From Mobula birostris (lineage: Eukaryota): a stretch of DNA of 64,000 bases. A program made the translations under genes and the position numbers. The notes beneath the pieces are model-generated. The model was not told where the DNA came from. It saw nothing but the letters and a program-made list of their open reading frames with translations, and searched no databases. Positions 598-64,000 of the stretch are shown here, in pieces; position 1 is the first letter of the stretch; the number at the start of each line of letters is the position of its first letter. Location of the stretch: positions 4,995,223-5,059,222 of the forward strand of contig NC_092391.1 of the NCBI RefSeq assembly GCF_030028105.1, written 5' to 3'.

Positions 598-1405
598 TTA
601 GTTGACCATTTGATTGTTAATTTGGTTCAGCACAACATTGAGGCCTGAAGGGACTGTTCCTGTGCTGTACTGTTGTATTTCAGTTTGTTTCCTTGCTTTT
701 CCTTGCGACCTCCCAGTCAAGTGAACTAAGAATTTCTCATTTCTTTTGTTGCGATTTATCTTGGCCATCTCCCTCTCTCTACCTTTCTGCATTGCCCCAT
801 CACCACTGTGCCTAAGATATTTGAAGATTTCATTTATAATGCTGCAAATGCCAAAAGCTAAAAATAATCAGTGTTAATAGCAAAGTTAAGAATCATTTAA
901 CATCCTTGTCAAAGTATTGACTGTTCAGTGGATACATCTTAGGAAATGTCAAAGCTGCTTTATCTTGTATTCCCAGTGAAACTAAATCTTGATTTGTACC
1001 TGGCAAATGTTGCCTGGCACCTAAAGATAAGGCTAATGACTTTTATATCTTTTGGAATGCATTTTGAATTTGATTTCTTTCCTAAGCATGGAAGAAAATA
1101 GAAATATTATTATGAGCCTCAGAATTCTTTTTCTTCAATGTAAAATAAGAAATACAGTAATGGAAAAACATTGCATTGACTATATGAGAGGGATTGTTGT
1201 CAATTTACTTTTGGTCTCAGGCTGCTGTTCTTTGTGTGTGGATTTGAATGTCTTGTTGCTGCTGAGCTGCCTGTGAGTGACAGATCGTGAGGCCTGTCAC
1301 CTACAGCTTGCTGCTGTCAAAGGTCTTTCAAAGAACTTTAAATGTTTTGGTCAGAGAAAATTCAATGCAGTTAAAGAGAACCAAAAAAATCCTTGCATCT
1401 ATTTA

Positions 1406-1650
1406 AGCACAAACGAGAAAATCTGCAGATGCTGGAAATCCAAGCAACATACACAAAATGCTGAAGGAACTCAGCAGACCAGGTAGCATCTATGGAAAAG
1501 AGTACAGTTGATGTTTCAGACCGAGACCCTTCAGCAGGACTGGAGAAGGAAAGACGGAGTAGAGTTAAAAAGTATGGGAAGAGGTAGGAGAAACACAAGG
1601 TGATGGGTGAAACTGGCTGGGAGAGGGGTGAAGTGAAGAGCTGGGAAGTT
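1406..1650 (-). mobile_element. Penelope-like element terminal (pLTR) fragment with degenerate hammerhead
   Basis: Same family as the GIY-YIG-bearing copies; minus strand reads CAGTC-CTGCTGA-A-GGGTCTCGGTCT-GAAACATC-AACTG (1505-1542). Confidence 0.75.
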
Positions 1651-38616: not shown

Positions 38617-38752
38617 ACAAACAAGAGAAAATCTGCAGATGCTGGGAATCCACGCAGCACACACAAAATGCTGGAGGAACTCAGCAGGCCAGGCAACATC
38701 TATGGAAAAGAGTACAGTCGACGTTTCGGGCCAAGACCCTTCAGCAGGTCCT
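38617..38752 (-). mobile_element. Penelope-like pLTR fragment with hammerhead motif
   Basis: Minus strand gacCTGCTGAaGGGTCTTGGCCCGAAACGTCgactgt. Confidence 0.8.
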
Positions 38753-42753: not shown

Positions 42754-42904
42754 GCATCTAAATTTGAGTGTAAGACCCAAGCCTCTGCCGGCTTTAGTGA
42801 GAAGCGGTGTTCCTGAGGCTCTTCGAGGTGAGGTGTGGCAGCTTCTTGCAGGATGTCACAACAATGACCAGATGGTAGAAGACTACAGACTCCTTATCAC
42901 AAAA
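42754..42904 (+). CDS. RABGAP1: RABGAP1 internal coding exon (151 nt, phase 2-0), start of TBC Rab-GAP domain
   Basis: attttatatAG acceptor, GTaagt donor; (W)[50 protein letters not shown] contains the TBC G(V/I)P..LR..VW motif. Confidence 0.96.
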
Positions 42905-47914: not shown

Positions 47915-48205
47915 CTTTTACCTTTTCCACCTATCGCCTCCCAGCTCCTTATTTCATCTCCCCTCCCGCACACACCCGCCTTCCCCCTCATCTGTTCTCA
48001 CCTATCACCTGCCAGCTTGTCTTCCTTCCCCTCTTTCCCCCACTATACTTATGGGTTCTTCCCTCTTTCCAGTACTGATGAAGAGTCTCGGCCTGAAACA
48101 TCAACTGTTTATTCCTATCCATAGTAGCTGCCTAACCTGCTGAGTTCCTCCAGCATTTTATGTGTGTTGCTCTGGATTTCCAGCATCTGCAGAATGTCTT
48201 GTATT
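47915..48205 (+). mobile_element. Penelope-like pLTR fragment
   Basis: Pyrimidine-rich region, hammerhead motif, then gctgagttcctccagcattt...gcatctgcag. Confidence 0.8.
48070..48107 (+). ncRNA. Minimal hammerhead ribozyme motif (intact core boxes, weak stems)
   Basis: CAGUA-CUGAUGA-A-GAGUCUCGGCCU-GAAA-C-AUC-AACUG. Confidence 0.5.
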
Positions 48206-48540
48206 TATTATTTTAAAATGCAAGTTACACAATTTAGCAAATACCTTTTGTGGCAAGGGATACAGATTTCCCAAAATTTATGCTGCTTTCATTAATTGGA
48301 TGTGAACAAAATGTTCTATGGACAAGTTTAATTTGTGTCAGTAATTTGATTTTTATTTAGTGCAGAAAGCAAAGGTTAATATCTCTTGTTTGGTGTGTAA
48401 ATGCTTCTTGGATAACTGCAGATTGTAGAGCTTCGCAGAATCAGTGGGATAATATTTCTGAGAGGATTATGATTTTTTTTCCCCAAGGGAAATGTTGGAC
48501 TATTCAGATTTATTTATCACATGTACATTAAAACATAGAG

Positions 48541-54391: not shown

Positions 54392-54745
54392 TGTACTTTT
54401 TCCATAGATGCTGCCTGGCCTGCTCGGTTCTTCCAACAGTTTGTGTGACTCCTAACCCCCCCCCCCCTCGCCCCATGGCCTCCTTCACCAATCAACTTCC
54501 TAGCTCTTTGCTTCATCCCTCCCCCTCCAAGTTTCACCTATCTCCTGGTGTTTCTCTCTCCCCTTCCCCCACCTTTCAAATCTACTCCTCAGCTTTTCTT
54601 CCCCCCCCCCAGTCCTGCCAAAGGATTTCAGCCTGAAACGTCAACTGTACTTTTTTCCATAGATGCTGCCTGGCCTGCTGAGTTCCTTCAGTATTTTGTG
54701 TGTGTTGTTCAGGTTTCCAGCATCTGCACTTTTCCCTTGTTTGTA
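54392..54745 (+). mobile_element. Penelope-like element with partial tandem pLTR duplication
   Basis: tgtacttttt(t)ccatagatgctgcctggcctgct occurs at about 54392 and again at about 54646. Confidence 0.75.
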
Positions 54746-54934
54746 TTTTTAAAACAATGCATTCCCTTTGCCATTAAAGAGTGCCCCAGCGAAGTTAGCC
54801 AGACTTTCCTTTTGAAAACCCTTTTAGAGTTCATCAAATACATTATGCAGAATTTCGGAGCAATTTTGCCAAATGATTTTGGCAATCAAGTTACAAATTT
54901 GTAATCAAGAGGAAAAGGATTTATTAAAAATCAT

Positions 54935-55372
54935 GTTACACACATCAAAGTTGCTGGTGAACGCAGCAGGCTAGGCAGCATCTCTAGGAAGAGGTACAGT
55001 CGACGTTTTGGGCTGAGACCCTTCGTCAGGACTAACTGAATGAAGAGTTAGTAAGAGATTTGAAAGTGGGAGGGGGAGGGGGAGATCCAAAATGATAGGA
55101 GAAGACAGGAGGGGGAGGGATGGAGCCAAGAGCTGGACAGGTGATTGGCAAAAGGGATATGAAAGGATCATGGGACAGGAGGCCCAGGGAGAAAGAAAAG
55201 GGGGAGGGGGGGAAACCCAGAGGATGGGCACGGGGTATAGTGAGAGGGACAGAGGGAGAAAGGGGGGGGGAGAGAGAGAGAAAGAATGTGTGTATATAAA
55301 TAAATAACAGATAGCATACGAGGGGGAGGTGGGGCAGAAGTTAGAGAAGTCAATGTTCATGCCGTAAGGTTG
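54935..55372 (-). mobile_element. Young-subfamily Penelope-like element 3' part
   Basis: Minus strand QPYGMNIDFSNF (end of PLE endonuclease ORF), pyrimidine-rich region, hammerhead motif, tail ccagcaactttgatgtgtg. Confidence 0.85.
54998..55033 (-). ncRNA. Minimal hammerhead motif, G12->A variant (probably inactive)
   Basis: AGUC-CUGACGA-A-GGGUCUCAGCCC-AAAA-C-GUC-GACU; stem I is perfect. Confidence 0.55.
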
Positions 55373-55811
55373 CAGTTTGGAAACTAGACGTGCATTAAAA
55401 AGTAGCAGAATTGTACTGTACTTGTAATTTATCTGTATTTTTGTATTTTATGTTTTGCCTTTTGCACATTGCTTACTGGTGAGTCTTTGTGTATAGGCTT
55501 CATTGATTCTATTGTATTTCATTATTCTACTGTGAATGCTTGCAAGAGGATTAGGGCGGCATGGCACCGTTGCAGTTAGCACATCACTTTACAAATCCAG
55601 CAACCCGGGTTCAATTCCCACCTCTGCCTGGAAGGAGTTTGTACATTCTCCCTGCCAACATGTGGGTTTTCTCCGGCTGCTCTGGTTTCTTCCCAATGGG
55701 TCACTGCAGATTGTCCTATGATTAAGCTAGGGTTAAATTTGGGTTGTTATATCTCAGTAAATGAATCTCAGGGTGGTATATGGTGACATATACATTGATA
55801 ATAAATTTACT

Positions 55812-55975
55812 CTGAGCAACACACACAAAATGCTGATGAACGCAGCAGGCCAGGCAGCATCTATAGGAAGAGGTACAGTCGACGTTTTGGGCTGAGACCT
55901 TTCGTCAGGACTAACTGAAAGAAGAGATAGTAAGAGATTTGAGAGCGGGAGGGGGAGATCCAAAATGATACGAGA
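55812..55975 (-). mobile_element. Penelope-like pLTR with hammerhead motif (55877-55912)
   Basis: AGUC-CUGACGA-A-AGGUCUCAGCCC-AAAA-C-GUC-GACU. Confidence 0.8.
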
Positions 55976-60049: not shown

Positions 60050-60532
60050 TATTTGTTCTATAAAACCAACAACTAGACTATAACTTCTACATTAAAAAAA
60101 TTAAAATTGTCTTGCTGATAGATCATTTTTTTCCCTATCTGTTTCATCAAACTCGTCTGTTTAAAGCCCTAAACTTTATGTATTGTATTTTTCTATTGTC
60201 CGTGTGCTTATCTAAGAATTTCTTAAATATCCTTAATGTATCTGCCTCTACCCCCACCCTTAGCAGGGCATTCCATGCACCTACTACTTCAAATTCAAGT
60301 TTGTTTATTGTCATTCAACCATACACCAGGAACAAAACCAGGATCTTCAGGGACTGAGGTGCAAAACACAGTAGGTATAGAACATACAGCACATAAAATA
60401 ATAACAATAAAAAAGTATTTTGTAGATATACAAGTTGACATGGTAGTGTACTGGTTAGCACAATGCTTTATAGTACCAGTGAGTAGGGTTAAATTCCCGG
60501 AGCTTCCTGTAAGGAGATTGCATCTCTCTGTA

Positions 60533-60572
60533 ACAGTCCTGACGAAGGGTCTCGGCCCGAAACGTCATCTGT
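60533..60572 (+). ncRNA. Minimal type I hammerhead ribozyme motif, best-preserved catalytic core in the window
   Basis: CUGACGA (60539-45), A, stem II GGGUC/GGCCC, GAAA (60559-62), C-GUC with predicted cleavage 3' of 60566. Stem I ACAG/CUGU has two core-proximal mismatches. Confidence 0.7.
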
Positions 60573-60632
60573 ACCTCTTCCTAGAGGTGCTGCCTGGCCT
60601 GCTGCGTTCACCAGCAACTTCTATGTGTGTTG
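60538..60632 (+). mobile_element. 95-nt Penelope-derived insertion with 14-bp TSD
   Basis: CTCTCTGTAACAGT is identical at 60524-60537 and 60633-60646. Confidence 0.88.
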
Positions 60633-61524
60633 CTCTCTGTAACAGTATGGGTTTCCTCTGGGTGCTCTGGTTTCCTCCCACCTTCCAAAGCTGTACTGTT
60701 GGTAAGATAATTGGTCCTTGCAAACTGTCCTATAATTGGCCTAGGGTTAAATTGGGGGTTTGCTGCATCGTGCGGCTGGAACGGCCTGTTCTGTGCTGTA
60801 TTTCAATAAACAAATTGACATAAGTACACCTAGTTAAATATACAACAGTATTACTGCTACTGGCCCTGTCATAAATAATGTGTTCTGGGTGAAAGCAAAG
60901 TTCAAAAGTCTCACAGCCTGGGGTAAGGAAGAAGCTGTTACCCAGCCTAGCTGTCCTTGTTCTTGTATGGTGGTATCTTCTACTTGGTGGCAGGAGGTCA
61001 AAGAGGTCGTGGGTTGGATGGGAAGTGTCCTTGACTATGCTGAGGGCTCTGCGAATGGCAGTCCTGATGTATGTCCTGGATGGGGGGGGTGGGGGGTGTG
61101 AGGGAGACCCCCTATGATTCTCTCAGCAGGCCTTCTGTTCCTTTGCTGGATCATGAAGTATGTCTGCTCTCTCAGGCGGTACTTCTTCAAAGGGAAAAGT
61201 GGGCATTCTCTCTGAGCTCCTAATATTTATCTCAGTCGTCGTTCTGCTCATTATCACTTTGCTGTAGTGAGAGTTTGCACTGTGCAAATTGACTGCTGCA
61301 CTTCCTGAAACAGCAGCTTTTCAAAAGCACTCAAGGACATCCTGAGAAGGTGTAAAATATCAGGCACTTTTACTTTCTATTTATTCCAAACAGTAAGGCT
61401 GCAGTTTTATTTTGAACCTGATAATTAAGCACATGACCAGTAATACCCCGTTTCTTAAGGAGCAGATTGACAACAGGGAATATGCAGACTGAGAATCAAA
61501 TTGTACACAGTCTTTATCACCTTT

Positions 61525-63117: not shown

Positions 63118-64000
63118 ATAGGAAGATTAGCTTGATTCAGGATTCAAGATCGTTTAATATCATTTCCAGTGCACAAGAGTAAAGGAGACGAAATAATTGT
63201 TACTCTGGATCTGATGAAGCCCAAAAAAAAATAAGATGAGGACACAATAATAAAAAAAACATAGTAGATATAAACACATAAGATAGCTTATATGCATAGA
63301 TTGATTGTATGTCCATAAAGAGATGCTAAGGCACAAGGATGTCTGTAAATAAGGTGACTGACAGGAAATGATAAAGTAGTGGTGGTTTGGGGTGTGGTAC
63401 ATGATATTTTAAAAATAGTATTGAAATAGATGATCTTTCAAATTTTTGTTAAGTAGTTTCTCAGTAATTTAGTAGAAAATGGAATGTCAGAGTTTGGTAT
63501 GTCTCATGTGAATATTTGAATTCCCTTCAGCTAAGTCTAAATAAATTTATTATCACAGTGCGAATATGTTACCGTATTTTTCCTAGAGATTCATGAACTT
63601 TACCTGCTGACAAGACAGTAATGTTGGTCAGTGTTGTACAGAACATACAGTGAGCTGACCACAGAGGATTTAAAGTTATCCAATACCAAATGAGGAAAAT
63701 GACCGATAGCTTTTCCTAGATGCTGCCTGGCCTGCTGAGTTCCTCCAGCATTTTGTGTGTGTTGCTCGGATTTCCAGCATCTGCAGATTTTCTCTTGTTT
63801 GCTTCGGCCACTAGACGTTAGTGGTTAGCACAGACTTAGGATTGTAGTCTTATAGAATTGAATTTATGCTTTCATCTTTATATTCCTTGGCAGGTAGCAG
63901 GAGGGCCACACAGCCCTATAGTTTTATCAGGTTGTTGGTGATACAATCATAAATTAAGTATCAGTATAGAGAGGAGGGCTTTGGGGAGGACTAAGAAGAA

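Follow-up and report, generated by a model that had tools for sequence, protein, structure and literature searches.

A 95-nt hammerhead-bearing insert in an old SINE of Mobula birostris, very probably the truncated 3' end of an abundant Penelope-like element

Penelope-like elements (PLEs) that carry an endonuclease (EN+) have a single reading frame, in which a reverse transcriptase (RT) is followed by a C-terminal GIY-YIG endonuclease, and pseudo-LTRs that contain a hammerhead motif. Partial tandems, solo pseudo-LTRs, inverted 5' pieces, heavy 5' truncation, an optional tail of 30-40 nt, short target duplications and microhomology joints have all been published for them (PMC8557442 and PMC3846280, cited here, like the other papers, for the portions of their text that were available). 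A CX2-5CxxC linker between the RT and the endonuclease is the criterion for Neptune, and what the hammerhead does in PLEs is described as unclear (PMC8557442). The hammerheads of metazoan PLEs are minimal type I motifs with a bulged base before stem II, a short stem I and a loopless palindromic helix III. They are dimer-dependent, weak in vitro and mostly solitary, in copies from truncated PLEs (PMC4209133). For Poseidon of Anolis carolinensis (PAc), the tail signature has been tied to two internal RT start sites about 35-40 nt apart, 3' of the hammerhead; the RNA template is uncut and the hammerhead is dispensable for insertion in vitro (PMC11167929). Non-LTR retrozymes are non-coding, hammerhead-bearing kin of the PLE pseudo-LTRs and consist of tandem units bounded by hammerheads (10.64898/2026.07.22.740005; PMC7229834).

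The insert described here lies in the window, a 64,000-nt stretch of contig NC_092391.1 of Mobula birostris (positions 4,995,223 to 5,059,222). Unsigned coordinates are those of the window, and signed numbers count along the family sequence, whose position 0 is window position 60538. The features of the locus are as follows.

60436..60815 (ends approximate), + strand: old SINE that took the insertion, located by paralogous hits
60524..60537, + strand: left target-site duplication, of which the final 3 nt, AGT, also correspond to element positions -3 to -1
60533..60538, + strand: 5' arm of stem I (ACAGTC), of which the target duplication supplies five bases and the insert one
60538..60632, + strand: very probable 5'-truncated PLE 3' end of 95 nt, family positions 0 to +94, without the optional 35-40-nt tail
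60539..60566, + strand: minimal type I hammerhead (CUGACGA, a bulged A, GAAA and a loopless palindromic ACGU), with a predicted cut after C 60566
60547-60550 paired with 60555-60558, + strand: hammerhead stem II, 4 bp, as read from the sequence
60567..60572, + strand: 3' arm of stem I (ATCTGT; GACTGT in the family), with a G-to-A CpG transition and a sporadic A-to-T transversion
60633..60646, + strand: right target-site duplication, of which the initial 2 nt, CT, also correspond to element positions +95 and +96
42755..42904, + strand: nearest identified upstream RABGAP1 exon, start of the TBC domain, located by a RabGAP1 structure match

The sequence CTCTCTGTAACAGT is present exactly at 60524-60537 and again at 60633-60646, directly abutting the 95-nt insert on both sides, as an earlier note on this DNA had described. 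Chance alone would produce about 0.08 pairs of identical 14-mers within 200 nt of each other in 64 kb, and the same arithmetic gives about 1e-6 for copies at both borders of a known repeat. The locus matches the element from -3 to +96 if the bases shared with the target are included. The insert has neither a promoter region nor a reading frame. It had been called hammerhead-only, which does not hold: 66 of its 95 nt are ordinary element 3' end, downstream of the cut site. Nor does it keep all of its CpGs, because the family sequence GTCGAC reads GTCATC in the insert and one of six CpGs is lost. The insert differs from the near-identical copies L003 and L009 at three of 95 positions (60567, 60568 and 60587), one of the differences being a CpG transition. 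The insertion is recent relative to the host SINE (about 3% against about 24% changed), but it is not pristine.

Microhomology at the 5' joint had been proposed to consist of a target CAGT that mimics the element consensus. Three nucleotides of it, AGT, are in register, but the young family reads CAGTTAGT immediately 5' of the core in 35 of the 36 copies that reach -10. CAGT is found at this position in older subfamilies and in one sibling, L153. The microhomology is taken as 3 nt, or as 4 nt for a template with CAGT. The CAGT immediately before the core was seen in L153 (the same place as L010), L152 and L017; that of L153 is apparently not target-derived, which suggests either a 4-nt slippage within CAGTTAGT or a template of the older type.

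A genome search with the insert returned at least 40 near-full matches, 96-100% identical, on many contigs, and the window contains ten element hits besides the insert. Several of the 30 matches that were fetched, copies of 96-97% identity, continue upstream into a reading frame that has RT and GIY-YIG motifs. In a natural frame of 935 aa, RVT_1 (E 2.3e-5) and GIY-YIG (E 0.004) were detected, both below the Pfam curated cut-offs. The RT is followed by the C-terminal GIY-YIG in one frame, contiguous with insert-type sequence, and the catalytic motifs are visible in the translation. A shorter protein, P0001, had no Pfam hit, and P0002 had no match to solved structures in a PDB sequence search. 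P0002 carries CKRNKCYTC, which is a CX4CxxC linker between the RT and the endonuclease. By this linker motif alone the family may be placed among the EN+ PLEs as Neptune-like. It shares with those elements the frame, the pseudo-LTR with its hammerhead, and the tandems, inversions, truncation, tail, duplications and joints listed above (PMC8557442, PMC3846280). This copy retains 95 nt only, and the pile-up of 5' ends described below is absent from the available portions of those two accounts.

The family is very abundant. In the whole genome a 51-mer has 20,603 exact matches and a 27-mer has 44,846. In 440 kb sampled blind there were 38 hits of at least 40 nt, 17 of them young, which extrapolates roughly to 350,000 pieces, 155,000 of them young, in 4.0 Gb. 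The upstream RT and GIY-YIG frame and this abundance identify the insert as the 3' end of a very abundant PLE. It is very probably the last 95 nt of the element, copied by the element's own enzymes and cut short just past the hammerhead. The description as a minimal ribozyme cassette has to be given up, since the insert is the truncated end of an autonomous element with more than 100,000 estimated young pieces, and the starts of its siblings range from +18 to beyond -1400. The template could be a short non-autonomous RNA instead of the full transcript.

The hammerhead retains CUGACGA, stem II, GAAA and GUC, and with its palindromic helix III it has the parts of a minimal type I motif; the earlier note likewise had all core nucleotides kept. 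That the 5' arm of stem I comes from target DNA is also correct for five of its six bases. The pairs of stem I next to the core are lost: the first two are C-A and U-U, and four of six pairs remain compared to five of six in the family. The core boxes, the bulged base, the short stem I, the loopless helix III and the solitary state are those of metazoan PLE hammerheads; unlike them, this copy has a stem II of 4 bp, two broken stem I pairs and a 5' arm composed mostly of target DNA (PMC4209133). An Rfam search of the window at the gathering threshold gave no matches. The minimum-energy fold of 60520-60646 has a non-hammerhead structure (z -1.68; 11 of 200 shuffles fold as well). A hammerhead without loop III could cut only as a dimer, and PLE hammerheads reportedly do cleave as dimers according to a paper from 2017. 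The hammerhead of the insert is likely to be inactive. The target-derived arm together with the family GACUGU would form six Watson-Crick pairs, so that some early self-cleavage as a dimer, before stem I changed, is possible.

Two mismatches were earlier suggested to have neutralised the ribozyme. Both core-proximal pairs of stem I are indeed broken, but there is no sign of selection. Whole-genome counts are 21 for GTCATC, 70 for GTCGTC and 29,016 for GTCRAC, and the A-to-T change is present in 91 of the 29,107 copies counted. The 20 GTCATC loci that were fetched have mixed subfamily backgrounds, which indicates recurrent mutation and no lineage. An inherited ATCTG subfamily, considered because the variant occurred in five of the first 30 loci (a query-biased sample), is ruled out by the same counts and backgrounds. 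Copies in sense orientation are not scarce either (11 on the + strand and 4 on the - strand in a 104-kb block). The only hint of selection, at this single locus, is that two of the three changes fall on adjacent stem I bases. The stem I changes fit neutral decay.

The host SINE is presumably of the V-SINE/HE1 type; V-SINEs are characterised by an 80-bp V-domain. HE1 is a SINE named for sharks and rays (PMC4824008). Identity between the right flank of the SINE and 17 paralogous hits does not exceed 82% and has a median of 76%. In six paralogues with both flanks aligned, the offsets between the flanks are 0, 3, 3, 4, 8 and -22, compared to 109 at the locus. The flanks project onto one site in these paralogues and the 14-mer would thus have been single before the insertion and duplicated by it; from the paralogous SINEs we infer an empty site with one 14-mer. 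An older copy of the same element, at 38617-38748 on the - strand, likewise starts at the core and is apparently inside another copy of the same SINE, near the same SINE position. Among the 24 public runs listed, all of them contigs, five contain at least half of the sampled words of the stretch, under two organism labels, and one, possibly the source sample, contains 0.78 of them; such shares are uninformative on the empty allele either way.

The exons of RABGAP1 found in the window span 2692 to 42904 on the + strand, and the insert is on the same strand, in agreement with the sense orientation claimed earlier. The exon at 42755-42904 matches the RabGAP1 structure 4nc6 with E 8.5e-23, compared to 1e-17 for RABGAP1L. 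DUF3694 was detected with E 6.6e-6 in one of four exons and weakly in a second. The next exon was not found within 61 kb downstream in a motif-based search. The TBC domain is unfinished at the last exon found, so the insert would be intronic. The RABGAP1 span includes further family members that differ in age, at 54938-55375 (-), 55815-55970 (-), 54488-54746 (+), 48071-48206 (+), 1400-1541 (-) and 63707-63801 (+).

The ends of the family were mapped at 60 loci anchored on sequence 3' of the hammerhead (30 of 41 rows of matches and the first 30 of the 20,603 51-mer matches), three pairs of which are less than 1 kb apart and perhaps not independent. No 5' end is in +19..+33, 11 are in +2..+18, 12 in -10..+1, 9 in -11..-70, 10 in -71..-250 and 18 further up. 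Thus 23 ends fall in -10..+18, compared to 4.3 expected from the upstream rate (P 3e-10), and the two halves of the sample contribute 11 of 30 and 12 of 30. The rate peaks at -10..+1 (12 of 49 copies at risk, or 2.4 per 100 nt, against 0.23-0.45 upstream); simple-sequence stretches may place some upstream ends too short, which makes the contrast conservative. Nested whole-genome counts give the same picture. The segment -3..+48 has 5,461 exact copies; 4,354 of them (79.7%) continue 7 nt upstream and 4,895 (89.6%) continue 7 nt downstream, the control. The excess upstream loss of 11% corresponds to about 600 copies of one variant. The start of the insert exactly at the core is real, but it is a common outcome and not special to this locus.

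Inversion junctions make up 14 of the 23 ends in the hotspot, a 15-fold enrichment, and the other nine are plain. Five of the nine plain stubs have duplications of 11-16 nt, like this insert, and the 5' joint commonly shows an overlap of 1-4 nt. Duplications of 10-16 nt were found at 11 of the 60 loci, five of them hotspot stubs, in a scan that covered the borders of direct pieces and missed those around inverted inserts (none in 49 of 60). A further hotspot stub with such a duplication was present in the blind sample, in the C8 block. Starts at -3 in the blind sample were considered as truncations and left uncounted, many being older subfamilies that diverge upstream of the core. At 20 of the 60 loci the insert is inverted head to head. 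The two arms frequently start in the interval -6 to +19 and the tail is present on one of them, an arrangement that agrees with priming on both strands of the target. Among the main texts searched, few of which were subscription papers, no published report of a truncation or 5'-end hotspot at a PLE hammerhead was found.

Across the cut site (+22..+28), 39,519 of 44,846 copies (88.1%) are retained, close to the control. This retention and the lack of starts at the cut site argue that cleaved RNA is seldom if ever a template, and uncut RNA is likely to be the template. At the other end of the element, 26 of the 60 loci end at or below +104, none in between and 34 at +126 or beyond, in a sample half of which was selected by a match up to +94. 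The family therefore has two 3' ends separated by an optional tail of about 30-40 nt, and the right end of the insert is one of the two, with 2 nt shared with the target. The two start sites of PAc are similarly spaced, and its uncut template, with no ends at the cut site, agrees with the family. The PAc frame starts in stem II, whereas the young family has ACG instead of ATG in the core and its long frame begins further downstream; the family also has a CxxC linker, which is not reported for PAc in the available part of that study (PMC11167929).

A sequence of events consistent with known PLE biology can be proposed. The GIY-YIG endonuclease would have made staggered nicks 14 nt apart in the old SINE. 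With uncut element RNA as its template, the RT would then have started at the inner one of the two internal sites (about +95, with 2 nt shared with the target), and synthesis would have stopped in the family's termination hotspot, on the 5' side of the hammerhead. The 5' end would have been joined via the 3-nt microhomology AGT, and fill-in would have produced the 14-bp duplication. Three neutral substitutions, two of which break core-proximal stem I pairs, would have followed. The identity of the element, the two ends of the insert, the duplication and the end distribution across the family are observations, and the steps are proposed to connect them. The target-primed insertion with short 5' microhomology that was first suggested for the locus is supported and is standard for PLEs.

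The peak of 5' ends at -10..+1 might also be expected if the insert were a complete copy of a short RNA, with its 5' end just before the hammerhead at a start site or a splice-related end in the pseudo-LTR, and if the stubs were run-off products of the strong-stop kind and not random truncations. The sequence upstream of the core has the look of a 3' splice site (the branch-point-like CTTACTAAC, a pyrimidine tract and CAG), also in older subfamilies. In Drosophila virilis, the Penelope intron ends at helix I (PMC4209133) and a start site is positioned about 120 nt upstream (PMC2377424). The ends are scattered over about 29 nt, however, and do not fall on a single base. The inversion junctions account for most of them, and the plain stubs are only 2.6-fold enriched (9 against 15, P 0.02). 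In a test for a spliced template, 24 hotspot junctions compared with a full-length copy had no common upstream exon sequence and no sense-oriented upstream element sequence, and a canonical splice donor was not seen by eye in the pseudo-LTR. We consider a short-RNA origin improbable.

It is very improbable that the insert is a dedicated ribozyme cassette or retrozyme monomer, which cut the RABGAP1 pre-mRNA until two selected mutations silenced it. The core is intact and sense to RABGAP1, two of the three changes are on the two core-proximal pairs, and vertebrate non-autonomous retrozymes derived from pseudo-LTRs exist (10.64898/2026.07.22.740005). But the insert is a single, sub-unit piece, there are no tandem units at the locus, and the ends (-3 and +96) are at PLE start and stop sites and off the cut site, unlike those of a cleaved monomer; the family has no spike of ends at +29. 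By the tandem criterion a retrozyme identity is rejected (10.64898/2026.07.22.740005). Furthermore, each of the two stem I changes is found again elsewhere at a background rate, the RABGAP1 region has many sense copies, the predicted fold is not a hammerhead, and no monomer activity is expected without loop III (PMC4209133). That a longer insert was later shortened by deletion, or that the repeat arose by chance or by an assembly error, is scarcely credible: the duplication exactly abuts both borders, sibling stubs match in length and microhomology, the SINE is contiguous when one 14-mer is counted, and the public run with 0.78 of the sampled words argues against an assembly error. The locus is most likely a real but ordinary fossil of PLE truncation and an inert passenger. 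The insertion spot is ordinary, because hundreds of similar stubs are present in the same genome.

This dead stub, in what would be a RABGAP1 intron, matters little in itself. The tens of thousands of near-identical young copies form a large natural record of where a PLE RT starts and stops, and the genome counts agree with the in vitro result of two start sites and an uncut template. The interest lies in the family-wide hotspot of 5' ends, inversion junctions above all, in the 5' half of the hammerhead, which the published reconstituted system could test. In 38% of the young copies sampled the end lies within this 5' half, and none start at the cleavage site; we tentatively suggest, as a reading that is on balance doubtful, that the family's hammerhead might act as a stop and fold-back signal during reverse transcription rather than as a cutter. 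The excess of inversions at the hotspot fits fold-back on the stems, and palindromes at inverted PLE junctions have already been read as self-priming (PMC3846280). Such a signal, if real, would explain why PLEs retain a nearly inactive ribozyme and how head-to-head inverted pseudo-LTRs arise, and the 95-nt insert would be one of hundreds to thousands of such fossils.

Several long copies deserve description. L149:1053-4660 and L150:1436-4243 are near-intact, with frames of 869-946 aa, and in L149 a full-length copy follows a partial tandem. These copies indicate that the family expanded recently in the Mobula birostris genome. In L006, L009, L149 and their relatives, CTTACTAAC, a pyrimidine tract and CAG or TTAG are positioned directly 5' of the core, from about -30 to -1. 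Older subfamilies have AG at the same place; the arrangement resembles a conserved 3' splice site, as in Penelope of D. virilis, with no donor seen. A stop-free frame at L148:1246-4056 joins a LINE-type RT region, which we take to be CR1/L2-like, to a truncated PLE RT, and probably arose by in-frame insertion of a PLE into a LINE. L004 and L005, about 645 kb apart on C24, are 99.3% identical over 3.1 kb including their flanks and represent a recent segmental duplication or an assembly duplicate.
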